Origin: a virus
Taxonomy: Duplodnaviria; Heunggongvirae; Uroviricota; Caudoviricetes
IMG/VR virus record: IMGVR_UViG_3300029904_000001
Coordinates: 1-64,000 of that record
Reading direction: 5' to 3' (one strand)
Length of the DNA: 64,000 nt
The translations under genes and the position numbers were made by a program. Each line of letters opens with the position of its first letter. The stretch's first letter is position 1. This document shows positions 29,308 through 62,935 of this stretch, piece by piece. The notes beneath the pieces were generated by a model. That model saw nothing but the letters and a program-made list of their open reading frames with translations. It made no database searches and was not told the origin of the DNA.

Positions 29308-31128
29308 ATGCAAGTAGTAGAATTTAATCAGAAAAATGAGAATCCGTTTTATGGACTTAAAGCGTGTTTAACGATTTATCAGCGTAATCAGTTTTTAATA
29401 GTACAGGATTTTGAAAACGCTTTTCAGGAAGTAAGAAACGATCCCGAGAAACTTAAGATGTTTTATTCGTTGTGTTTCTCAATCGGAGATATAACGAATA
29501 GACAACACAACATCTTTCACGGTAAGAAGAAAGATTCTGGTGGAATGTCTCAAAGAGAATCGTTTTACAACTTTGTTATTTGGCTTTGGGAAAATCAAAG
29601 AGAACAGTTTATAGAGTTTCTTTATAAAGGTCTCTTTAACGAATATAATTGCTTTGATACTCTGCTTCGAAATAGAGTTCGATCGAATAAGCAAGGTGCG
29701 ATTATATCTAAATTCACAATGTTGACGGATGCTAATTATCGAAAGGTTCTTGCTGAATATTTCTATAAGGTTATTAACGGAAACAACCCATTTAATAAAC
29801 AGCTGATCGCTAAGTTTCTTACACTTCCAAGATTGGGTAAACGTTCAAAACATCAAAAGATGTTAACTGAAACATTTACTTTAATGAAAGCTAAAGCAGA
29901 TTTCTTAAAGGAACTTAGCGATTTAATGGGTTGGGAATATGTTTACAAAGGTAACTTCGCCAACTTTGTCGGATTTCGTAAATGGAGACGCGATTATAAT
30001 GGAGAGAACGAATCGGTATTGTTTTCAACTGGAAAGATAAACGATTTTGATCGAGATGAATTTATTACCTGGTTAGATAAACAACCAGCTGGTGCAAGAT
30101 TTAGAGTTAGAAATCGAGTAATGTTTCCTGAATCTGATGGTTCTTTCAAATGGCCTAAGCTTAAGACCTGGTTTGAAGAATGGGAACAGTATAAAGAATC
30201 TAAGCAACAGGAGCAGCGTGTTCTTGAGGAAAAAGTTAGACAAGGTACAGCAACTTCTGAAGATGTTGAGAAACTAAAGAAAGTTCAAAAAGAAGCTAAA
30301 GTTACTGTCGGAGCAACTACATTTAAAGATATATGGAACGGTATACTTAATAATAATGTGGATAAACTCAAGTTTGAAACATTTACTAATAAAGTAAATC
30401 TTCCATATAATGCACTTGTTATTGTAGATGATTCTGGCAGTATGTCTGGTGCTCCTTTCAATTTTGCTACTTTCTTGGCATCCATTTGTCTCATTAAGAA
30501 TCCAGATGATGAAGGTAGAAATCTTATCGGTATGTTTAATAATACAGCTCGTTTGTATCAGTTTATCGATAAGAAAGCTACTAATGTACCGAATTCACTT
30601 TGGAGAAGAGCAAATACTATCAGTATAGTTCCAGAAGCATTTGTAGACCCTCATCGAAGCGTGTACGAGAATTATAAACGTATTGATAATTTCATGCGAG
30701 CTGTATATCAGAGTGGTGGAACTAATATCTCGTCGATTCCCGAGGGTTTCAAGGAGATGGCAGATCAAAATCCAGAGATAATGGATGCTCTAAAGAATTA
30801 TCCTGTGTGGTGTATTGCAAGCGATTGCGAATGGAACAATTTATATAGTCCTGAGGCTTCGATGAATGATTTCATGCGTAAGTGTGAAGACTATTTTGGC
30901 TATAGACCATTTATCATTGCGATAGATGTTAGTTATAGTCATTATTCACAAGTCAACGTAGAGCAATTTAGTGGAATTGACAATTTCCTATATGTTCCCG
31001 GTAATCCTGAGATAATCGAGCAGATCTTAATTAACTTTAAGGATATGGATCGATTTGATGTTTATACTCCTCTTCAGAGTGTATATAGATCTAATCGTTA
31101 TGAAATTGTTAGAGCTAATGTAATCTAA
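29308..31128 (+). CDS. large protein with C-terminal von Willebrand factor A domain (MIDAS DxSGS...GGT); Ro60/TROVE-like candidate
   Basis: ..LVIVDDSGSMSGAPF.. (MIDAS DxSxS) then ..QSGGTNISSIP.. (GGT/N element) then ..IIAIDVSY..; ~360-aa alpha-rich N-terminal region; followed by tRNA-like RNA elements. Confidence 0.45.
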   Translation: MQVVEFNQKNENPFYGLKACLTIYQRNQFLIVQDFENAFQEVRNDPEKLKMFYSLCFSIGDITNRQHNIFHGKKKDSGGMSQRESFYNFVIWLWENQREQFIEFLYKGLFNEYNCFDTLLRNRVRSNKQGAIISKFTMLTDANYRKVLAEYFYKVINGNNPFNKQLIAKFLTLPRLGKRSKHQKMLTETFTLMKAKADFLKELSDLMGWEYVYKGNFANFVGFRKWRRDYNGENESVLFSTGKINDFDRDEFITWLDKQPAGARFRVRNRVMFPESDGSFKWPKLKTWFEEWEQYKESKQQEQRVLEEKVRQGTATSEDVEKLKKVQKEAKVTVGATTFKDIWNGILNNNVDKLKFETFTNKVNLPYNALVIVDDSGSMSGAPFNFATFLASICLIKNPDDEGRNLIGMFNNTARLYQFIDKKATNVPNSLWRRANTISIVPEAFVDPHRSVYENYKRIDNFMRAVYQSGGTNISSIPEGFKEMADQNPEIMDALKNYPVWCIASDCEWNNLYSPEASMNDFMRKCEDYFGYRPFIIAIDVSYSHYSQVNVEQFSGIDNFLYVPGNPEIIEQILINFKDMDRFDVYTPLQSVYRSNRYEIVRANVI

Positions 31129-31558: not shown

Positions 31559-31674
31559 ACGATACTTACAATAATTGATTAAAGGGAACTTACTGTCGCT
31601 GGTTCAATTCCAGCATTCTTCGCCATTTTATTGAAGAGTTAGCTCAGTTGGTAGAGCATAAGTTAAAAAGTATC
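31559..31674 (+). ncRNA. tRNA-like element with circularly permuted order (3' half then 5' half) enclosed by an 8-bp flanking helix; Y-RNA/YrlA-like candidate
   Basis: 31587-31624: ACTTA-CTGTC-GCTGG-TTCAATT-CCAGC-ATTCTTC-G-CCA (anticodon-stem 3' strand, T-arm, acceptor 3' strand, CCA). 7-nt spacer. 31632-31662: GAAGAGT-TA-GCTC-AGTTGGTA-GAGC-A-TAAGT (acceptor 5' strand, D-arm, anticodon-stem 5' strand). Acceptor 7/7 and anticodon stem 5/5 are complementary. Flanks CGATACTT (31559) and AAGTATCG (31667) pair. Confidence 0.35.
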
Positions 31675-31779
31675 GTTTTAAGAGATTTTTGTTTACAAAT
31701 TAAAACAATTAAGATTTTATGAAACTAATTAAAATTGGGGGGGGGCAAATAAGTAAATCCCCTAAAAAGGGGGTCATTT

Positions 31780-32379: not shown

Positions 32380-32414
32380 AATTATAGTATGACACTTATA
32401 AAATCAAATTTTAG

Positions 32415-32578
32415 ATTGATAATCTCGTGGTCAAGGGTTCAAGTCCCTTCTGGTGCTTCTTATGAAGTGTTAGTAGCTCAGCCGGTTAGAGCACGTATTA
32501 AGTGTCATTAAAACTTATATTAATTATGTTACTTACAAAAACAATTATAATTTTGGGTTCGAGTCCCAATTTTTCCAA
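32415..32578 (+). pseudogene. tRNA fragments / degenerate tRNA-like element (3' T-arm piece followed by 5' GAAGTGT..TAGCTCAG piece and a distal T-arm)
   Basis: AAGGG-TTCAAGT-CCCTT-CTGGTGC, then GAAGTGTTAGTAGCTCAGCCGGTTAGAGCAC..TAAGT..ACTTA..TTGGG-TTCGAGT-CCCAA. The halves do not form a consistent cloverleaf. Confidence 0.25.
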
Positions 32579-32684
32579 GTATGGGAGAAAAGGCGGAATT
32601 GGTTTACGCGCTTGTTTGCAGTACAAGTTTATTTAAAAGTAACATTTTTATATTTTAAATTAAGTTATATTAAAAATAACACAT

Positions 32685-32759: not shown

Positions 32760-32876
32760 CTACGTTAATGTTTGACATTTTAATGTTACTTATAATCAAA
32801 TTATCGTTTTGGTTAATGTTTATTTAGGGTATATAAACTAAGTGGTTCAAATCCACATCAAGTAACATTTTTTATT

Positions 32877-32951: not shown

Positions 32952-33054
32952 CGATTTTTGGTTAGGATTTTAAACATGTTAACGATTATGATACTTATAA
33001 TAATATATTATAACGTGATCATTGGGATCTGGTATTAGTATAGTATCATTTTAA

Positions 33055-33137: not shown

Positions 33138-33253
33138 CTAAAAAGTCACTTATAATAAAATTAATTTATTAAATTGAGGATCTATAGGTAAATTATTTTA
33201 TTATAATATGACTTATATTTAAAAGATTAATTAATATTTTTACAATAACTTAT

Positions 33254-33949: not shown

Positions 33950-34044
33950 TGTAAATAATTTAACAATTTTTAATATAAAAAGATACCTACAATCAATATT
34001 TTTTATGATTATTATGAAATAACTTAAATTTGGTATCTTAAGAT

Positions 34045-34203
34045 GATCCCATAGCTTAGTTGGTAAAGCACAGCGCTTTCTGGATGTAGTTCAGTTGGTA
34101 GAATGCAAATTTTGGGAATTTGTGGTCGCTGGATCGTGCCCAGCCATCCAGACTTTACTTGAAATTAACGCTGGGAGCGTGAGTTCGAGTCTCACTGGGA
34201 TCA
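34045..34203 (+). tRNA. split (nested) tRNA whose anticodon loop contains a complete tRNA-Pro; anticodon undetermined (TTT if the outer exons are joined at CTTT|TAA)
   Basis: 5' half GATCCCA-TA-GCTT-AGTTGGTA-AAGC-A-CAGCG-CTTT (34045-34079). 3' half ..TTAA-CGCTG-GGAGC-GTGAG-TTCGAGT-CTCAC-TGGGATC-A (34165-34203). Acceptor 7/7, D-stem 4/4, anticodon stem 5/5 and T-stem 5/5 are all complementary across the 73-nt insert. Confidence 0.45.
34080..34152 (+). tRNA. tRNA-Pro (anticodon TGG), located inside the anticodon loop of the outer tRNA
   Basis: CTGGATG/CATCCAG acceptor; TA; D-arm GTTC-AGTTGGTA-GAAT; anticodon stem CAAAT/ATTTG with loop TTTGGGA; T-stem GCTGG/CCAGC; T-loop ATCGTGC (A54/T58 swap); discriminator A. 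Confidence 0.6.
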
Positions 34204-34353: not shown

Positions 34354-34425
34354 GGGAAGGTCGTATAATGGTTATTACGGGTGGCTGTTAACCACTTTAT
34401 AGGTGTTCAATTCACCTCTTTCCCG
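34354..34425 (+). tRNA. tRNA-Asn (anticodon GTT)
   Basis: GGGAAGG/CTTTCCC acceptor (1 GU); anticodon stem GGTGG/CCACT with loop CTGTTAA; T-arm AGGTG-TTCAATT-CACCT. Confidence 0.6.
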
Positions 34426-34433
34426 CTCTAAAC

Positions 34434-34506
34434 AACTCTATAATTCAAGTGAATAGAATTTCACACTTCTAATATGAGTATACAGGCTTGAATCCTGTTG
34501 GAGTCA
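34434..34506 (+). tRNA. atypical tRNA-like gene with 4-nt D-loop and 8-nt anticodon loop TTTCACAC (TCA at its centre); identity unresolved
   Basis: AACTCTA..TGGAGTC acceptor (6/7); TA; D-arm ATTC-AAGT-GAAT; stem TAGAA/TTCTA closing loop TTTCACAC; T-arm ACAGG-CTTGAAT-CCTGT. Confidence 0.3.
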
Positions 34507-34519
34507 CAATTAAACAACT

Positions 34520-34838
34520 AGGGGTGTAGTGTAATAGTAGCACAGCGGTCTTTAGCTGATTAGCAATAATCAAATTGGAGCCTTATAGTAGAAATATTAT
34601 AAGTGAACACGATGATAACGTTGAAGCCTTAACAGATGAAGCTGATGGTAACGACGTCGGAATAGATTAAAAATCTAGCCGCGAGAGAGTAGATAATCGT
34701 GTACCTAAGTCGAAAGATATGGTAGTGACGTACTCCAGACTACAAACTTTTTAAGGTAGCGAAAGCTATAGTAGTAAAGCAAAACCGTAGACGGCACGTC
34801 CAAAGTGCCTAGTGAGGGGGCAGAACCTTCCACCCCTG
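34520..34838 (+). tRNA. intron-containing tRNA (type II, long variable arm); predicted spliced anticodon UCA if splice sites are CTT|...G|CAAA
   Basis: 5' exon AGGGGTG-TA-GTGT-AATAGTA-GCAC-A-GCGGT-CTT (34520-34552). 3' exon CAAA-ACCGT-[25-nt arm GGCAC-GTCCAAA-GTGCC]-GAGGG-GGCAGAA-CCTTC-CACCCCT-G (34780-34838). Acceptor 7/7 and anticodon stem GCGGT/ACCGT pair. 5' exon resembles cyanobacterial tRNA-Leu(UAA) exon 1. Confidence 0.35.
34553..34779 (+). other. candidate group I intron in tRNA anticodon loop (between positions 34 and 35)
   Basis: 227 nt. Begins after exon U and ends in G. Contains ..AAATTGGAGCCTTATAG.. and ..TAAGGTAGCGAAAGCTATAG.. resembling conserved elements of tRNA-Leu group I introns (..AATTGAGCCTTAAAG.., ..GTAGCGAAAGC..). 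P7-like AGACTAC/GTAGT. Confidence 0.3.
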
Positions 34839-34941
34839 CTATAAGACAATAAAGATGTCACAATCGCTATAAATTAATGTTGAGAGATTTTATTTAAAGA
34901 AGATTTCAGTGTGAGAGATTAATTAACTTAATGTTTTTATA

Positions 34942-35529
34942 GTGTTAAAAGATCAAATCTTAGAATTAAGAGCACAAGGAAAATCTTATAAAGAGATTTC
35001 TGAGATTCTTCATTGTTCTAAATCTACAGTTAATTATTGATGTAGTCCAGATGGAAAACAGAAAGTAAAAGAGCGTAAAGCAAGACAGCCTCGATGATGG
35101 ATTACATTGCAAAAGAAAGTAGATGATTTTAAGAGAAGAGAAAAATCTCCAAATCCTCGTACTCAAAGTCAGAAAGACTGACAAGGAAGATTTTTAATTA
35201 AAATAAAGTATTTTAAAGAACTTGCTTCAGTAAAAGTGAAAAATTTTACAGCTAAATCATTATTAGATAGTATAGAAGATCCAACTAAAATGAAATGTTA
35301 TTTAACTGGGAGAAATATTGATATAACTAAAGATGACTACCATCTTGATCATATTATGCCAGTTTCTAAAGGTGGATCTAGTTCTCTAGATAATTTGGGT
35401 ATCACTTGTCCACAAGCAAATATGTCAAAAAGTGATATGACAGTTGATGAATATTTATCTTTATGTAAAGAAGTGTTAGAGAATTTTGGATATACTGTAA
35501 CTAAAAAAAATAACACACCTCCTCATTAA
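34942..35529 (+). CDS. HNH homing endonuclease with N-terminal HTH; four in-frame TGA=Trp; free-standing next to intron-containing tRNA
   Basis: GTG start; ..ILELRAQGKSYKEISEILHCSKSTVNY-W-CSPDGK..RQPR-W-W-ITLQ.. then HNH core DDYHLDHIMPVSKGGSSSLDNLGITCPQANMSKSD. Confidence 0.5.
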
Positions 35530-35716: not shown

Positions 35717-35795
35717 GCCTTCTTAGCTCAACTGGTTAGAGTGTATCACTTTCTGGATGTAGTTCAGTTGGTAGAACATCTGGTTTAGGCGATAA
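35717..35795 (+). pseudogene. degenerate duplicate of the nested-tRNA unit (outer 5' half + CTTT + start of inner CTGGATG.. tRNA), lacking 3' partners
   Basis: GCCTTCT-TA-GCTC-AACTGGTTA-GAGT-G-TATCA-CTTT-CTGGATGTAGTTCAGTTGGTAGAAC.. The shared segment CTTTCTGGATGTAGTTCAGTTGGTAGAA matches 34076-34103 at 28/28 nt. Confidence 0.3.
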
Positions 35796-35965
35796 ACTAA
35801 TTTTTTGTTCTTATTTATTTTAAACAAAATAAAAAGGTGGCTCAGTTCTATAATCTTACTAGAAAAATTCTTCAGAGAATCAGAAAGAGATCATAATCAG
35901 GGGGTCACTACTTCAAGCCCAGCTAGGTCCACAATATTTATTTTTTTATTTATTATTTTTAAAAT

Positions 35966-36546: not shown

Positions 36547-36835
36547 CTCTTGATACTTACAATACTATAAATGGAATTTAATAATTCGTATGTAGCGGCA
36601 TTCAGTATCAATCTTAATGTTTAATTTAAATGTTAATGTTATGAAAAGAGTAATTAAAATTTTGAAGAAAGCATTTGATAAATGGTCTAACAGCCAATCA
36701 ATGCTTATCACAGGATCTATTCCTGTTAAGGGATAATCCTTTTACTCTTTTTATATAATATCGCTTAATTATTTATGATGCTTACAATAATATTAAATCA
36801 ATGAACTTTTAATTCATCCAGATAAAGCATCATTA

Positions 36836-44122: not shown

Positions 44123-45100
44123 ATGTCAACGCAATTACATCAATTAGAAAAAGACTATATTTTGGAAAATTATTCTACGTTTGGTCCAAGAATAGTATCA
44201 CAAAAATTACAAAGATCAGAAAGTACTATTATTTCTTTTGCAAAACGAAATAAATTGAATCTAAAAAAAGATCCTAACTTAACTTTTGAAGATGCTCCAG
44301 ATTTTAAATATTGTTTAGATTTTGAAAAATGTTTTGATCAGCTTACTCCAGAATTAACCTATTGATTGGGATTTTTTTGAGCAGATGGTATAAACAATAA
44401 AGGTTGTTTGTCTATCGAAATAGTTAGAGAAGATGGAGAAAATTTACAAGATTTATTTTTAAATATTTTTCCGTTTAAAATAACATATAGAGAATCACCA
44501 AATCGAAAACCACAAATGCGTTTTTATGTATATAATACAAATATATCTCAAAAATTGGTAGATTTAGGAAAATATCCACATTCTTTTGAATCTCATAAAA
44601 AAATATTAAATTTTTTACAAACAGATGAATTAATTAAATATTTCTTACGAGGTTTAATCGATGGAGATGGTAATTTTTATTTAAATAATTCTGATAAATA
44701 CGGACAATTTACACTGGCATCTAATGTAAATCAAGATTGATCCACATTAATGAATCTATTAAAAGATTTTAATCCGTTTGTAACTATTTCGAAAAGAAAA
44801 ACTGGAAACAGTTCTGTTTTAAGAATTACTGGAAAAGAAAATCTTTGTAATTTTATTAAATATTTAGAATACGATACAATAAATATTGGATTACATCGAA
44901 AACAACAAAAAGCGTTAGAAATTGTTAAAATGTACAACGAACCAAAGCCACATCGGACAATTTATCAATATTCCAAAAGTAAAGAACTATTGAATACATT
45001 TGATTCAATAAAAGATGCAGCAGAATCACTAAATGTAAAAAAATCAGCAATTTCTAATTGTTTATGTAAAATATCAAAAACCGCTTTTGGATACATTTGA
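44123..45100 (+). CDS. LAGLIDADG homing endonuclease (double-motif) with HTH; three in-frame TGA=Trp
   Basis: One frame 44123-45100. Motif 1 ..ELTY-W-LGFF-W-ADGINNKG.. (W from TGA). Motif 2 ..KYFLRGLIDGDGNFYL... Track ORFs 44123/44408/44750 are joined by TGAs. Confidence 0.55.
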
Positions 45101-45146
45101 TCATATACACCATTGTAATGAAATTAAATCCTATAACTTATTTTAA

Positions 45147-46215: not shown

Positions 46216-46676
46216 TTTATACTGATGGATCTGCACAACCAAGTCGAAATACAGGTGGATTTTCAGCTGTATTTTGTAAAAATGGTAAATGTGTAGATAA
46301 AATATATCGAGGATATACGAATACTACAAATAATCGTATGGAATTACGTGCAGTTGTAGAAGCATTAAAATGATTCAAAGATCCAACAGAAGTAACTATT
46401 GTCTCAGATTCGCAATATGTTGTAAATAGTGTTAATGGGAAGTATTGCTTTAAATGAATTAAAGAAAATGATTTATCTAAAAAGAATCTTGATTTGTGAT
46501 TCGAACTTATCAATCTACTAGAATATCATACTGTAACTTTTAAGTGGGTAAAAGGACATAATAATCACTCTATGAACGAATATGCCGATAGACTAGCTTG
46601 TCATAGTAGTCAGTGTATGAACTTAAAAGATGATATTATTCAAGATGTATCTTTATTAAAAAATAAATGTGATTAG
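46194..46676 (+). CDS. rnhA: ribonuclease HI; five in-frame TGA=Trp
   Basis: MSKEK-W-IVYTDGSA..TNNRMELRAVVEALK-W-..VTIVSDSQYV..NLDL-W-FELI..VTFKWVKGHNNHSMNEYADRLA. TGA occupies the conserved DLW tryptophan. Confidence 0.65.
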
Positions 46677-47479
46677 TTTACGTACATATTTCACCTTCAA
46701 ATAAAGTTTACGTTGGAATTACTTCCAAAACTGCTAAACAGCGTTGAAGGAATGGTAAAGGATATAAACGACACCAACCTTTATTTTATAACGCAATTCT
46801 TAAGTACGGTTGAGATAATTTTATACATAAAGTTTTATTTAATAATATAACCGAGAAAGATGCAAAATTAATAGAAATAGATTTAATCTATTATTATAAA
46901 AAGATTGGAAAAAGTTACAATATTACCGATGGAGGTGATGGTACGCGTGGACGTCCTAATTCTGAACATGCGAGACGATTAATTAGCGAGGCTCAAAAGA
47001 AACGTCCGATAGAACAATATACTTTAGATGGTACATATGTTCAAACGTTTGAATCCGTTGTTGCAGCTAGTAAAGCAATTGGAAAAGCGATTTATCAAAA
47101 TAATCATTGATATGCAGCAAGAGGTTTAAGTAGGTCTTGTAACGAAGGAACTGTAGCTTACGGTTTTCGATGAAAATATGTAGATCAAAAAGAGTTAAAA
47201 ATTGCGTTAAATAAGTCTACAAAACCTATTGTACAACTTAGTTTAGAGGGAGAATTTATTAACAAATTTGATTCTGGTGTTCATGCTGAATGTCAAACAG
47301 GTATTGACCATAAACTAATCTCTGCTTGTTGCACAGGTAAACGTAAAACAACAAAAGGATACCGATGAATGTTTTATAATGATTATCTTAATACAATGTC
47401 GCAATGTCTTAATTTACCCGAAGATCCAATTAATATTAAATGAAATGATACAATCAATAAAAATTCTCAAAGTGGGTAA
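46667..47479 (+). CDS. GIY-YIG homing endonuclease with NUMOD-like DNA-binding region; six in-frame TGA=Trp
   Basis: ATG overlaps the RNase H stop. M-W-LVYVHISPSNKVYVGITSKTAKQR-W-RNGKGYKRHQPLFYNAILKYG-W-DNF.. (GIY..YIG) then ..RRLISEAQKKRPIEQYTLDGTYVQTFESVVAASKAIGKAIYQ.. Confidence 0.55.
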
Positions 47480-56783: not shown

Positions 56784-57557
56784 TTGGATAATTGTATAGT
56801 CTATTCTCAAACCATTATGAAGAAAAAAAATTATTATAAACAACACGTTTGTCAACATTGCGGAAGAATTTTCTATGGAAGAGGCAATTATTGTAGAAAA
56901 CACGCAGAACAAAAAAGAAAATACGGATATTTTTTAGATTGTAATCCAAGAACTCCAAAAGATCCAAATGAAATTATTTGGAAAGACGGATGTACTTGTG
57001 TTGTTACTTACGATAAAGATTGTAATCCTAATTATTATTTTAAAGTAGATATTGAAGATCTTCCATTAATTACAAAACATAAATGGCACGCCGCTATCGC
57101 TAAAAAGAAAAACGGATTGATCTATATGTGTAGCAATGACGTAGGTTTATACCATATTTTATTAATGCAGCCAAAGAAAGGAGAAACTGTTGATCATATA
57201 AACAGAAATACATTCGATAACAGAAAATGTAATTTACGAATTGTTTCTCAAACTGAACAAAATCATAATCAAAAAGTAAGAAATAATACTAGATTTGATA
57301 TTAAAGGAATTGATCAACATAAAGATCCAAATAGAGAAAAACGATATATGGCGCGATTTTCAATGAATAAAACAACATATAGAAGTCCTTGGTATAAAAC
57401 ATACGAAGAGGCTGTATTTGCTCGTTATTTATTACAACAATTAGCAAAAGTAGAAGTAATTAATAATGATATGCAAAAATATATTGACAAACTAACAGAA
57501 GAACAAAAATTACCAATTGTTAAATGGTTTTCAAATAGGTTTAAAGACCGAGTATAA
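56784..57557 (+). CDS. HNH homing endonuclease with Cys-rich N-terminus
   Basis: ..GETVDHINRNTFDNRKCNLRIVSQTEQNHN.. is the HNH core; N-terminal CQHCGRIFYGRGNYCRKH zinc ribbon. Confidence 0.5.
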   Translation: MDNCIVYSQTIMKKKNYYKQHVCQHCGRIFYGRGNYCRKHAEQKRKYGYFLDCNPRTPKDPNEIIWKDGCTCVVTYDKDCNPNYYFKVDIEDLPLITKHKWHAAIAKKKNGLIYMCSNDVGLYHILLMQPKKGETVDHINRNTFDNRKCNLRIVSQTEQNHNQKVRNNTRFDIKGIDQHKDPNREKRYMARFSMNKTTYRSPWYKTYEEAVFARYLLQQLAKVEVINNDMQKYIDKLTEEQKLPIVKWFSNRFKDRV

Positions 57558-60443: not shown

Positions 60444-60689
60444 ATGGAAAAAGCGATTGTAACATTTCTAAATCCTGATACTGGAGATAAGGTTATATTT
60501 AACTTTAAGTTTGATAAAGATAAAGATATTTTGGATTTTGATCCTATATTTAAAGTAAAAAATCCAGATAACCAATCTAACAATTTAATAAAAACACTAT
60601 CTTCAGTTTTTATAGATACATTAAATGGAGAAAATACTATTACAGACGATAGTGGGGAGTCAAGCATACGGAACAGCAACTCCAAATAG
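60444..60689 (+). CDS. small protein overlapping the start of the nucleotidyltransferase gene
   Basis: 81 aa, different frame from 60625; overlap 65 nt. Confidence 0.3.
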   Translation: MEKAIVTFLNPDTGDKVIFNFKFDKDKDILDFDPIFKVKNPDNQSNNLIKTLSSVFIDTLNGENTITDDSGESSIRNSNSK

Positions 60690-61695
60690 TGATATAGATA
60701 TTAAAGGAATTTATATCCAAAATATTTTTGATGTAGCATCTTTTAATTATGAACAACAAATAATGCCAGATAAAGATACTACATATTATGAAATTAAACG
60801 ATTTCTTGAATTAGCCATGTCTGCTAATCCAACTATTCTGGAACTAATGTGGATGCCAGATAGATGTATTCAAATTAAAGATCCACTTTTCATTAAATAT
60901 ATTGAGTCTAATCGAGATATATTTCTAACTAAGCAGTGTGCAAATTCTTTTATGGGTTATGCTTATCAACAAATAGTTAAAGCTCGTGGTTTAGATAAAA
61001 AGATGAACTGGGAGAAAGATAGAATAACTCGTAAAACTCCAATTGATTTTTGTAAGTTTATTTGGTTACCAGATTGGAAGTATAAGAAAGATATTAGATT
61101 ATCTAATAAGATTGATTTAATAACTCCAAGTTGGTATAATCATGATTTTTATGCATTAACTAAAATAGATAACACTAAACAATTATATAAATTCTGGAAT
61201 ATAGAAATGCCAGCACAAGAATGGACTAGACCCTTGTGCAACGATGATGATTTAATTATGACCGCTATTCCAGAAGATGTTGATGCTCAATTACTCGCAA
61301 TTGTTCAATATGATTTAGATGGATTTCAAGCACATTGTCGTGAATATAATGCATATCAAACTTGGCTTAAGGAACGTAACGAACAAAGATATGTCGATGT
61401 AGAAAATCATGGTCAGAAAATAGATGGTAAAAATCTTATGCATTGCTATCGTTTACTTCAAATGGCACGTGAAATTGCTACTGAACATAAATTAATCATC
61501 GAACGTCCAAATAGACAAGAATTACTTGATATTAGACATGGAAAATACGATTTACAGTCTTTATTAACTAAAGCAGAAGATCAAATCGAAGAAATTAAAG
61601 AGTTATTTAAACATTCTGATCTTCCAGATAATGTTAATAAAGATATTGTTAATAATATATTAATAGATATACGTAAGGAAGATTTATATGGATAA
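60625..61695 (+). CDS. Pol-beta-superfamily nucleotidyltransferase (GS..DxD NTase; CD-NTase/MNT/CCA-class-I-like)
   Basis: N-terminal ..IVGSQAYGTATPNSDIDIKGIY.. (G[S/G]x9-13DxD); 356 aa. Confidence 0.45.
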   Translation: MEKILLQTIVGSQAYGTATPNSDIDIKGIYIQNIFDVASFNYEQQIMPDKDTTYYEIKRFLELAMSANPTILELMWMPDRCIQIKDPLFIKYIESNRDIFLTKQCANSFMGYAYQQIVKARGLDKKMNWEKDRITRKTPIDFCKFIWLPDWKYKKDIRLSNKIDLITPSWYNHDFYALTKIDNTKQLYKFWNIEMPAQEWTRPLCNDDDLIMTAIPEDVDAQLLAIVQYDLDGFQAHCREYNAYQTWLKERNEQRYVDVENHGQKIDGKNLMHCYRLLQMAREIATEHKLIIERPNRQELLDIRHGKYDLQSLLTKAEDQIEEIKELFKHSDLPDNVNKDIVNNILIDIRKEDLYG

Positions 61696-61780
61696 AGAAT
61701 TAGTTTTACTTTCAGATTCTCTTTATGGTTTTTTAAAAGATGTATGAAACGAAACCAATAATCAGATTATTTTTGAATTA

Positions 61781-62935
61781 TTGTATTCACAAGATTTAAT
61801 AAACGAGTATAATAGCACAAAGGACGAAATTTTACAGACGAAACTAAAAACTAGTATCAATGATCATTTAACTGATTATGCTCGTATGTTAAGTTTTCGC
61901 AATAATGAGTTTGTAATATCGTTTTTACCAAAAGGAAAAGAACCAAAATATTCTGGAGAAAAAATATGAAGTAGAGAGAATCGTCAATCAGGTAAACCAA
62001 CTAAAATTCTTCAAAAAATAGTAAAAAGAAAGTTTACCAATCGTGACTATGAGCTACTAAACAATCTCTTAAAGAGTAAAATATTAAATCAAAAAGAGTT
62101 TGAAGTAGTAGAAGGAAAAGATATTCAATATTGGTACAATGAAGTAAATAATGATGAAGGTGCAACATTGTCAAACTCTTGTATGAGATATGCAGATTGT
62201 TCACAATATTTAGAATTATATGCTGATGTGTGTAAAATGCTTGTCTTATTTAATGAAGATAAAAGTTTAATATGCGGACGTGCTCTTCTCTGGGAAATTG
62301 ATGATAAGATTTATATGGATAGAGTTTATTATTCTAGAGATTGGTATTACGATTTGTTTATTGATTATGCACAAGAACACAAATTTGCATATCGAGCAAA
62401 TAATTCTTTACTTTCAACTGGTAGTAATCAATATTGGTATTCTCCACAAAACAATTATAAATCACCTATATTTTTAAGTTTACATGTTGAATTACCCAAA
62501 AGCTATGATAGGCTTCCCTATATAGATTCTTTTAGATATTTATTTGATGATATCTTATATGATCATCTTCCTACTTCCGATGAATTAAATTATTTAGAGG
62601 AAATTGATGCGTGCGATTGTGCAGATGGTGAAACTAGTAAACTTCTATATATTACATGTTATTCTTGTGGTAAATCAGCATGGAATGTAGAAGGAGAGGA
62701 AAATTCTTTATATTGGTCTGATCACGATGGGCGTTATTATTGTGATGATTGTTGTAGTTGGGTAGAGGTGCTTGAAGATTATATACACAATGACGATATA
62801 GTTGATTGTGTTGATGAAGATGACTATTCATTTATAGACGCACGTTGGGATATTGAACGAGACTCTAATTATATCAAACACGAAGGAACATATTATCACA
62901 TTAATAGCGAATACGCACAAGAAAATTTAGTATAA
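61781..62935 (+). CDS. Cys-rich protein (385 aa) joined across one TGA=Trp
   Basis: Track ORFs 61781-61969 and 62168-62935 are in the same frame, separated only by TGA at 61967. C-terminal CDCADGE..CYSCG..CDDCC cluster. Confidence 0.45.

Follow-up and report, generated by a model that had tools for sequence, protein, structure and literature searches.

A complete tRNA-Pro gene within the anticodon loop of a tRNA-Lys gene in crAss-like phages

Bacterial transfer RNA (tRNA) genes have been reviewed as uniform, with self-splicing introns of groups I and II only and most of these at 37/38; no nested type is among the disrupted tRNA genes of the review literature, where the word 'nested' is not used (PMC4033280). 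The arrangement considered here is in a 64,000-nucleotide (nt) stretch of phage DNA, positions 1 to 64,000 of IMG/VR record IMGVR_UViG_3300029904_000001 ('the window' below, always at its full length), in which the anticodon loop of a tRNA-Lys(UUU) gene (34045-34203) is interrupted by an entire tRNA-Pro(UGG) gene. A preceding reading of the stretch, from its sequence only, had called the maturation of such a gene undescribed for a phage, and this stands: full-text literature searches yielded no description of a tRNA nested in a tRNA. The nested gene is a variant of the disrupted, intron-containing tRNA genes, and would be a new kind of these if RNase P/Z-dependent splicing were confirmed.

Group I introns are known in tRNA genes of bacteria, phages and plastids, and that of tRNA-Leu(UAA), for instance in cyanobacteria, is also at 34/35. 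They share with the present insert the interruption of a bacterial-type anticodon loop, the coexistence of interrupted and uninterrupted alleles in relatives and the proximity of homing-endonuclease genes, but the present insert is non-catalytic and cannot self-splice. In being short (<100 nts), non-catalytic and in need of protein nucleases and a ligase, it is like the anticodon-loop introns of Archaea and Eukarya (EndA/Sen, with RtcB or Trl1), and here too the exon halves would remain paired during the reaction. However, it is at 34/35 and not at the canonical 37/38, the host domain is bacterial, there is no conserved bulge-helix-bulge, and the intron is a whole tRNA with ordinary sites for RNase P and RNase Z at its ends. 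In the split tRNAs of Nanoarchaeum and the permuted tRNAs of Cyanidioschyzon merolae pieces are also united by pairing of the halves, and for permuted tRNAs cuts by RNase P and RNase Z are part of maturation, as is proposed below for the nested gene. In contrast to both, its halves are on one transcript and separated by a functional tRNA, without a spacer and without separate loci; they are colinear (5′ then 3′, 90 nts apart on one strand) and so do not constitute a split or permuted tRNA gene.

The topology is identical to that of the engineered 'tRNA scaffold', in which a foreign RNA replaces the anticodon loop of tRNA-Lys or tRNA-Met and a folded RNA is thus carried on the anticodon stem of an outer tRNA (here tRNA-Lys). 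The insert of the scaffold is not meant for excision, whereas the present one is a substrate for end processing. The dimeric tRNA precursors of T4 type also have two tRNAs per transcript, separated by RNase P and 3′ processing, but in tandem and not nested order. With nested order the release of one tRNA breaks the other.

Architecture of the composite gene

All parts of the composite are on the plus strand. The 5′ exon of the outer tRNA-Lys(UUU), delimited by in-silico splicing and covariation (34045-34078), consists of the acceptor 5′ strand GATCCCA (34045-34051), the D arm GCTT/AAGC (34054-34069, read as TA GCTT AGTTGGTA AAGC), the anticodon-stem 5′ strand CAGCG (34071-34075) and the loop bases C32 U33 U34. 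The stem strand is followed by CTTT (34076-34079), of which the last base, the single U at 34079 between the outer CUU and the inner +1, is either outer U35 or a 1-nt leader and is able to pair with the inner A73. The main body of the insert is the complete inner tRNA-Pro(UGG) at 34080-34152, recognized by ARAGORN (as tRNA-Pro(tgg)), by Rfam (RF00005, 57.8 bits against a gathering score of 29) and by compensatory changes. The tail of the insert, CTTTACTTGAAA (34153-34164), has a variable 5′ part and a conserved purine-rich end, YTGAAA(N). The 3′ exon (34165-34203, delimited in the same way as its 5′ counterpart) starts with the loop bases TTAA (34165-34168; U35 U36 A37 A38) and proceeds through the anticodon-stem 3′ strand CGCTG (34169-34173), the variable loop GGAGC, the T arm GTGAG-TTCGAGT-CTCAC (34179-34195) and the acceptor 3′ strand TGGGATC (34196-34202) to the discriminator A73 (34203).

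Standard pairs make up 21 of the 21 stem pairs of the outer tRNA and 21 of the 21 of the inner one. The claim of the sequence-only reading that a complete tRNA-Pro is nested in the anticodon loop of an outer tRNA is thus borne out, with its coordinates and pairings right (42/42 standard pairs); its placing of the 3′ half at 34165-34203 is also right, with the adjustment that the start of this half includes the four loop bases TTAA. ARAGORN with introns allowed, which that reading had proposed as a check, did not report the outer gene, and in-silico splicing was needed. When the CTT of the window is joined to TTAA, ARAGORN calls a tRNA-Lys(ttt) with the canonical loop CTTTTAA.

Just 5′ of the composite is a leader hairpin, read from the sequence (AAGATACCT ... 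GGTATCTT; 33980-34044, plus strand). An equivalent hairpin, its arms changed yet complementary (AAGATACTT/AAGTATCTT), is before the composite in the relatives L041/L056 and before an intact tRNA-Lys in L052/L058.

Conservation in relatives and identity of the outer tRNA

The source phage is crAss-like. It fits the large, intron-rich, recoded crAss-like phages described by Yutin et al. 2021 (PMC7886860), and its group is probably the Zeta group of that work. Reading TGA as sense lengthens the open reading frames (ORFs) of at least 80 amino acids in the window from 13,387 to 19,862 residues, and in-frame TGA occurs 48 times there. Lying 3 kb upstream is the gene of a 606-amino-acid protein, for which there are hundreds of homologues on contigs of 95-178 kb (one carries the name Crassvirales). 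Relatives were reached via contigs encoding such homologues and, in one case (L001/L041), via DNA pattern scans of IMG/VR.

The nested layout (tRNA-Lys around tRNA-Pro, Lys[Pro] for short) is present in eight independently assembled, TGA-recoded crAss-like genomes from IMG/VR, ENA and Logan: at 34045-34203 in the window, 8573-8731 in L051, 8252-8410 in L041, 11888-12046 in L061, 15211-15370 in L056 (= L057), 8917-9077 in L064, 17676-17836 in L065 and 8722-8882 in L068. Proteins neighbouring the composites are 40-90% identical to those of the window. Chance resemblance or an assembly artefact, for which the metagenomic origin of the assemblies may be cited and nothing further, is of negligible probability. 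Different studies and assemblers yielded the eight assemblies, the 42 pairs of the window are standard without exception, the deletion scan described below singles out the flanks of Pro and Arg genes, and the comparative data refute the idea. Other searches were less productive. Short junction patterns in IMG/VR gave 10 and 28 chance matches in coding sequence and one true relative only, a further exon pattern gave no match in IMG/VR, and neither the two JGI metagenome-contig scans nor a scan of genome contigs gave any match. In GenBank phages the sole blastn match was the tRNA-Pro of Lak megaphages, and tblastn with the 606-residue protein found none.

The inner gene is a tRNA-Pro(TGG) in all eight composites, in four clearly different versions (acceptor strands CTGGATG, CGAGTAG, CGAGATG and AGGGTAG). 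The outer acceptor strand occurs as GATCCCA, GACTCCT, GACTCCA, GATTCTG and GATTCCA, with a matching 3′ strand for each. In L061 the 5′ half of the outer tRNA is like that of L064 (GACTCCA) and the 3′ half like that of the window (TGGGATC), with a C3-A70 mismatch in the acceptor stem as the result; this suggests recombination inside the composite.

Pairs were counted on an alignment (A2) of seven of the eight composites. Standard pairs fill 98.3% of its cells, and 24 of the 42 pairs are altered on both sides, a number that drops to 2-5 if partners are displaced by 1-3 columns; shuffling never gave values as high as these. Nine of the compensatory pairs are in the outer tRNA (acceptor 4/7, anticodon stem 2/5, T 2/5, D 1/4), whose helices are 98-100% paired across relatives, and 15 are among the 21 pairs of the inner one. 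Without guidance RNAalifold returns a double cloverleaf, one within the other, and adds a pair between the base before the inner +1 and the inner A73 (7/7). As a control each of 119 tRNAs from 14 loci was removed in silico and ARAGORN re-run. An outer tRNA of normal size that depended on the new junction appeared only from the flanks of tRNA-Pro, at eight loci, and of one tRNA-Arg. (The other hits, few in number, came from tRNA-His flanks, L062 Lys and L066 Arg; they were tandem calls or calls independent of the junction, and were taken as spurious without being followed up in full.) Because of the compensatory changes and this control, the outer gene is neither a chance match nor a decayed relic, and on the evidence of covariation all eight helices of the nested pair are shown to be under selection. 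The sequence-only reading had considered that the outer halves might prove unconserved, as those of a decayed pseudogene; the opposite was found, with conservation and compensatory changes in eight genomes, and a pseudogene or relic at 34045-34203 is ruled out by the 98-100% outer pairing and the nine compensatory pairs.

The same data bear on the idea of a selfish or protective insertion, whereby a tRNA-Pro cassette entered at a DNA break in the anticodon loop of tRNA-Lys, leaving an outer gene that is dead or dying and looks intact through recent origin or gene conversion. Homing-endonuclease genes do adjoin the locus (in L001/L041 an HNH gene follows the composite, in L051 an ORF ending in HTH precedes it, and in L052 and L058 a PDDEXK_5 ORF is inside tRNA-Pro), relatives alternate between interrupted and uninterrupted alleles, the two halves of L061 look as if joined by recombination, and a remnant in the window shows that junctions of this type decay. 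Yet nine compensatory pairs and near-complete pairing in the outer tRNA, where neighbouring proteins have diverged as far as they have, and loop residues that are invariant, make a dead or dying outer gene very improbable. Such an insertion may account for the origin of the nested pair, but not for its maintenance.

The remnant is at 35717-35801 on the plus strand and is a mosaic: a tRNA-Thr-type acceptor strand, a Lys-like 5′ half ending in CTTT, about 37 nts of tRNA-Pro and then CGATAAACTAAT. A 30-nt stretch across the composite junction is repeated exactly in it (35747-35776), and the half upstream of this stretch is of different, mosaic sequence. In L051, the closest relative, the tRNA-Thr of that spot is intact; the window keeps only its acceptor strand, GCCTTCT. 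The tRNA-Pro part stops inside the anticodon loop, and CGATAAACTAAT corresponds to the first bases of the PDDEXK-ORF intron found within the tRNA-Pro of L058 (with a diverged form in L052). No matching 3′ halves are found downstream. The sequence-only reading was partly correct about a recurrence at this place, but not in taking it that the composite duplicates as a unit, the second copy being a truncated mosaic without 3′ halves. From its make-up the element is a recombination remnant, by definition a relic and no working duplicate, and it shows that nested-gene junctions do move and decay.

The identity of the outer tRNA is clear from the two ends of the interruption. In the Lys[Pro] alignment neither the CTT of the 5′ side nor the TTAA of the 3′ side varies, while three of the five adjacent stem pairs do. 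Removing in silico the 85-88 nts between CUU and UUAA (a 73-79-nt tRNA plus a tail of 10-12 nts) gives the loop CUUUUAA and an ARAGORN call of tRNA-Lys(ttt) in eight of eight composites. The extra U before the inner +1 is a feature of the window, L051 and L041, and is absent from the other five. L052-54 and L058 have an intact tRNA-Lys(TTT) at this position, likewise preceded by the leader hairpin, and that of L058 has the acceptor stem of the L041 outer tRNA (GACTCCT/AGGAGTC). Seven unrelated phages have ordinary tRNA-Lys genes that match the L041 exons without a difference from U8 to the variable loop. No other tRNA-Lys was found in the 64-kb window by ARAGORN or Rfam, where AAA is the most used codon (715 of 10,980) and CCA the commonest proline codon. 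By its sequence, then, the outer element is tRNA-Lys(UUU) once the insert is removed. The splice rule, the intact homologues and the use of AAA place the insert at 34/35 in what is, for relatives, a normal tRNA-Lys gene. The predicted spliced junction of the outer tRNA is ...GCACAGCGCUU-UUAACGCUGGG..., and k-mers across spliced junctions, such as GCACAGCGCTTTTAACGCTGGGAGCG for the window and GCACAGCACTTTTAATGCTGGGAGCG, are absent from the DNA.

A second nested pair and the possible routes of maturation

The hit to tRNA-Arg in the deletion scan, which was in L065, flagged a second family, and inspection then found tRNA-Asn(GUU) split at 34/35 by tRNA-Arg(UCU) in four relatives: L061 (12176-12340), L064 (9207-9371), L065 (18027-18188) and L068 (9094-9255). 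Here the 5′ exon ends in CTG (G34), tRNA-Arg starts at the next base, a 19-21-nt tail follows and the 3′ exon starts with TTAA, so that the two ends give the loop CTGTTAA. TTAA is thus invariant in the 12 composites of both families. In this family 97% of cells are paired and two outer acceptor pairs are compensatory, with only two lineages sampled. The window has the same Asn (34354-34426) and Arg (34434-34506) genes in plain tandem, Pro and Lys are in plain tandem in L066, and in L052/L058 tRNA-Lys is followed by a tRNA-Pro split by an ORF-bearing intron. From these tandem arrangements nesting seems to arise from neighbouring genes, and it arose twice at the same loop position. The Asn[Arg] pairs are an independent second family with the same 34/35 site and the same start of the 3′ exon, and support a working nested pair. 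The comparative evidence is that both partners are kept functional though a non-catalytic tRNA insert is in the anticodon loops of two different tRNAs.

Several known types of intervening or self-cleaving element were considered for the insert and rejected. At 85-88 nts it is too short for a group I intron core (P3-P9, roughly 100 nts or more), Rfam finds only a tRNA in it, and, though its 5′ side follows a U, its last base is A, G or U without a conserved terminal G; since the tRNA and the 10-12-nt tail account for all of it, there is no room for a catalytic core. It is not a bulge-helix-bulge intron, as that motif is not conserved, the 5′ site is at the base of the inner acceptor stem and not in a bulge, and RNAalifold returns no such helix. 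Small self-cleaving ribozymes (hammerhead-like CUGA...GAAA) were looked for by eye, the bases needed being in the inner acceptor stem and changing between genomes, and Rfam has none at E up to 1. A promoter in the tail, a cut of the 3′ splice site by RNase P of the external-guide type, and a splint helix between exon end and tail each fail to fit all 12 composites.

The arrangement, its conservation in eight genomes, the selection on its helices, the Lys identity and the exact restorability of the loop are the observations, and from them we infer a route of processing whose steps are given conditionally here. The composite would be transcribed as one RNA folding as a cloverleaf within a cloverleaf. 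The inner tRNA has a U before +1, A73 and a C past the discriminator, as do the other tRNAs of the window, and with such normal determinants for RNase P and 3′ processing it should be cut out. A cut by RNase P at the 5′ end of tRNA-Pro would both begin its release and leave the outer 5′ exon with a 3′-OH at U34 (U35 in three genomes), and a 3′ end nuclease of RNase Z type would cut past the A73 of tRNA-Pro. RNase P as the 5′ cutter is suggested by an asymmetry: the inner +1 directly abuts outer position 34 in nine of the 12 composites, whereas on the 3′ side there is always a tail, of 10-21 nts, ending purine-rich before UUAA (YUGAAA(N) or GAGAAGNAAN). A separate activity would set the 5′ end of the outer 3′ exon, some nuclease removing the tail up to UUAA. 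When the two outer halves are co-folded the cloverleaf is kept. Pairing in the acceptor, D, anticodon and T helices would hold the halves to each other, with the anticodon loop nicked or gapped, and ATP-dependent RNA ligases of the T4 Rnl1 type seal substrates of this kind. Sealing by a 3′-OH/5′-phosphate RNA ligase would give the CUUUUAA loop, and a single gene would then supply tRNAs for the commonest codon, AAA, and the commonest proline codon, CCA.

A working nested pair processed in this manner, from one transcript with release of the inner tRNA by RNase P and a 3′ nuclease, trimming, and ligation of the outer halves, has in our estimation an even chance of being correct. A number of points weigh against it. 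Release, trimming and ligation are all deduced from DNA. If only RNase P and RNase Z cut, the 3′ exon would keep 10-12 extra nts, and we know of no nuclease that cuts before UUAA. With CUU before the insert in five genomes and CUUU in three, one fixed pair of cut sites does not fit RNase P in all of them. There are imperfections in the outer tRNAs, a 1-nt bulge in the T stem of L041 and the C-A acceptor mismatch of L061, and after splicing only the L065 outer Asn passes ARAGORN, the other three having unusual T loops. The sequence-only reading had proposed a search for genes of RtcB, Rnl or polynucleotide kinase, and Pfam and PHROGs recognized none of these, nor another RNA ligase or a splicing endonuclease (EndA/Sen), among the approximately 50 ORFs of the 64-kb window, which is about one third of the genome. 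The sole match of RNA-repair type is an RlaP-type 'RNA repair pathway' nucleotidyltransferase at 60625-61695 (PF10127, E 5e-20; phrog_388, E 3e-57). Within the region 60625-62935 it is followed by the gene of a 415-amino-acid protein found only in relatives of the source phage, and the model of this protein (pLDDT 91.5) is weakly GNAT-acetyltransferase-like with C-terminal cysteine-rich, zinc-ribbon-like repeats. The modelled fold would thus be GNAT-like and not that of a ligase.

That no ligase or 3′ splice-site nuclease is found in the window is also what would be expected if the inner tRNA-Pro is released and the outer halves are never rejoined. They could then be a folded handle that stabilizes the precursor or recruits processing enzymes, or a two-piece, non-decoding decoy for nucleases or sensors of tRNA-Lys and tRNA-Asn. 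Both of these tRNAs are classic targets of anticodon nucleases, the region has other tRNA-like RNAs that are non-decoding, permuted and YrlA-like, and there are the imperfect outer tRNAs of L041 and L061 and the odd T loops of three outer Asn. But halves that stay apart leave unexplained the invariant CUU and UUAA, which rebuild a Lys or Asn loop beside stems that vary, the compensatory upkeep of the outer D arm and anticodon stem, and the normal tRNA-Lys at the same spot in relatives. Phages rich in AAA would, moreover, be without a tRNA-Lys of their own in the sequence at hand. This account is regarded as unlikely, though it is the one to which most weight should be given after rejoining by a 3′-OH/5′-phosphate ligase.

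Splicing could also be the work of a dedicated endonuclease which finds 34/35 by its distance from the outer tRNA body, cuts both strands there and leaves 2′,3′-cyclic phosphate and 5′-OH ends for an RtcB-type ligase, a route known from tRNA splicing in Archaea and Eukarya. The excised tRNA-Pro would then be matured by RNase P and RNase Z, which would have no other part. All 12 composites, in both families and with either insert, obey one rule (to cut after 34 and before U35), and the 3′ exon always begins 4 nts before the stem. The absence of a conserved bulge-helix-bulge counts against it: a 4-bp UUUC/GAAA helix is present in some genomes only and is lost in L065/L068, where the inner +1 is A. 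No EndA/Sen-type domain is in the window, enzymes of this type are to our knowledge not known in bacteria or phages, and the account gives no reason for the missing 5′ spacer. It is considered improbable.

To return to rejoining after release by RNase P, the larger claim would be that of a third kind of tRNA splicing in phages of bacteria, with a tRNA as the intron, RNase P and RNase Z as the splicing nucleases, a 3′-OH/5′-phosphate ligase and two working tRNAs as the outcome (Lys and Pro, Asn and Arg). This is put forward tentatively, with somewhat less assurance than the route itself. Together with the permuted tRNA-like genes of the same lineage, the nested genes point to a ligase-based pathway of tRNA reassembly that would be new to the bacterial world. 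Rejoining of the outer tRNA would make this the first case of tRNA splicing that depends on proteins in a virus of bacteria, a new route, from tandem to nested, for the origin and survival of disrupted tRNA genes, and a natural counterpart of the engineered scaffold. As standard tRNA finders miss the outer gene, tRNA-Lys, tRNA-Asn and intron-bearing suppressor tRNAs are under-counted in crAss-like phages. This bears on the mismatch that has been reported between stop-codon recoding and detectable suppressor tRNAs (PMC7886860).

Neighbouring tRNA genes and tRNA-like units

A suppressor tRNA for UGA (anticodon UCA) is encoded at 34521-34839, with its 5′ exon at 34521-34552, an intron at 34553-34779 and the 3′ exon from 34780. 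The interruption is after CTT (34/35), and the 227-nt intron, which ends in G, is probably a real group I example. L061 (12364-12455) and L041 (15281-15373) have the suppressor tRNA without the intron, and L051 has it with the intron. Both ARAGORN and Rfam missed the suppressor tRNA of the window entirely, and such missed intron-bearing genes may be the cause of reports of 'no detectable suppressor tRNA' in recoded crAss-like phages. The T arm of the window gene looks degenerate (GGGGGCAGAACCTTCC).

The tRNA-Pro of L058 (13923-14797) and L052 (14457-15331) is interrupted by an intron of ~0.8 kb with a PDDEXK_5 ORF, and is split past TTTGGG(T), at or near 37/38; because of this split ARAGORN reports no tRNA-Pro in these loci. 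Free-standing genes of homing-endonuclease type in the window are an HNH gene with an in-frame TGA (34942-35529), a LAGLIDADG+NUMOD gene (44123-45118), a GIY-YIG-like gene (46667-47479) and another HNH gene (56817-57557). There are thus four in 23 kb, and one is between the suppressor tRNA and the 35717 remnant.

The 5′ arm of the leader hairpin of the composite contains a recurrent motif, there GATACYTAYAAT. In the form G(A/T/C)(T/C)AC(T/C)TA(C/T)AA(T/A) it precedes nearly every tRNA or tRNA-like unit of the window (for example at 31560-31571, 32390-32401, 32527-32538, 32786-32797, 32984-32995, 33147-33158, 33982-33993 and 36553-36564), usually with an inverted partner (AAGT..C), located past the unit or ahead of the tRNA. 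Judging from its sequence, it could be a phage promoter (with a -10-like TAYAAT) or one strand of a processing stem.

The tRNA-like units just mentioned include circularly permuted ones, at 31559-31676, 32389-32508, 32526-32645 and 32782-32869 in the window and at 2960-3330 and 3690-3830 in L041. Their order is T arm, acceptor 3′ strand, closing loop (once GCCA), acceptor 5′ strand and D arm, and each is inside a leader/trailer stem of 9-10 bp with compensatory changes between phages. Two of them have sub-threshold Rfam matches to YrlA (Y RNA-like), at 29.8 and 35.5 bits. A complete anticodon arm (loop TTGCAGT) is present in the unit at 32526-32645, whose two ends are at the position that a long variable arm would occupy. 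The gene of the 606-residue protein (29308-31128) lies immediately before the Y RNA-like units; this protein is conserved in crAss-like phages and has a vWA/MIDAS-like motif, VIVDDSGSMSG. It has no Pfam or PHROG match, and one homologue is named 'cobalamin biosynthesis protein' in one source. A Ro60/TROVE-like role was considered for it, as a candidate only.

Elsewhere in the window, G+C is 38-45% in positions 1-4000 and about 30% in the remainder, and the ORFs of the first 16 kb are less clearly on a single strand in their orientation.

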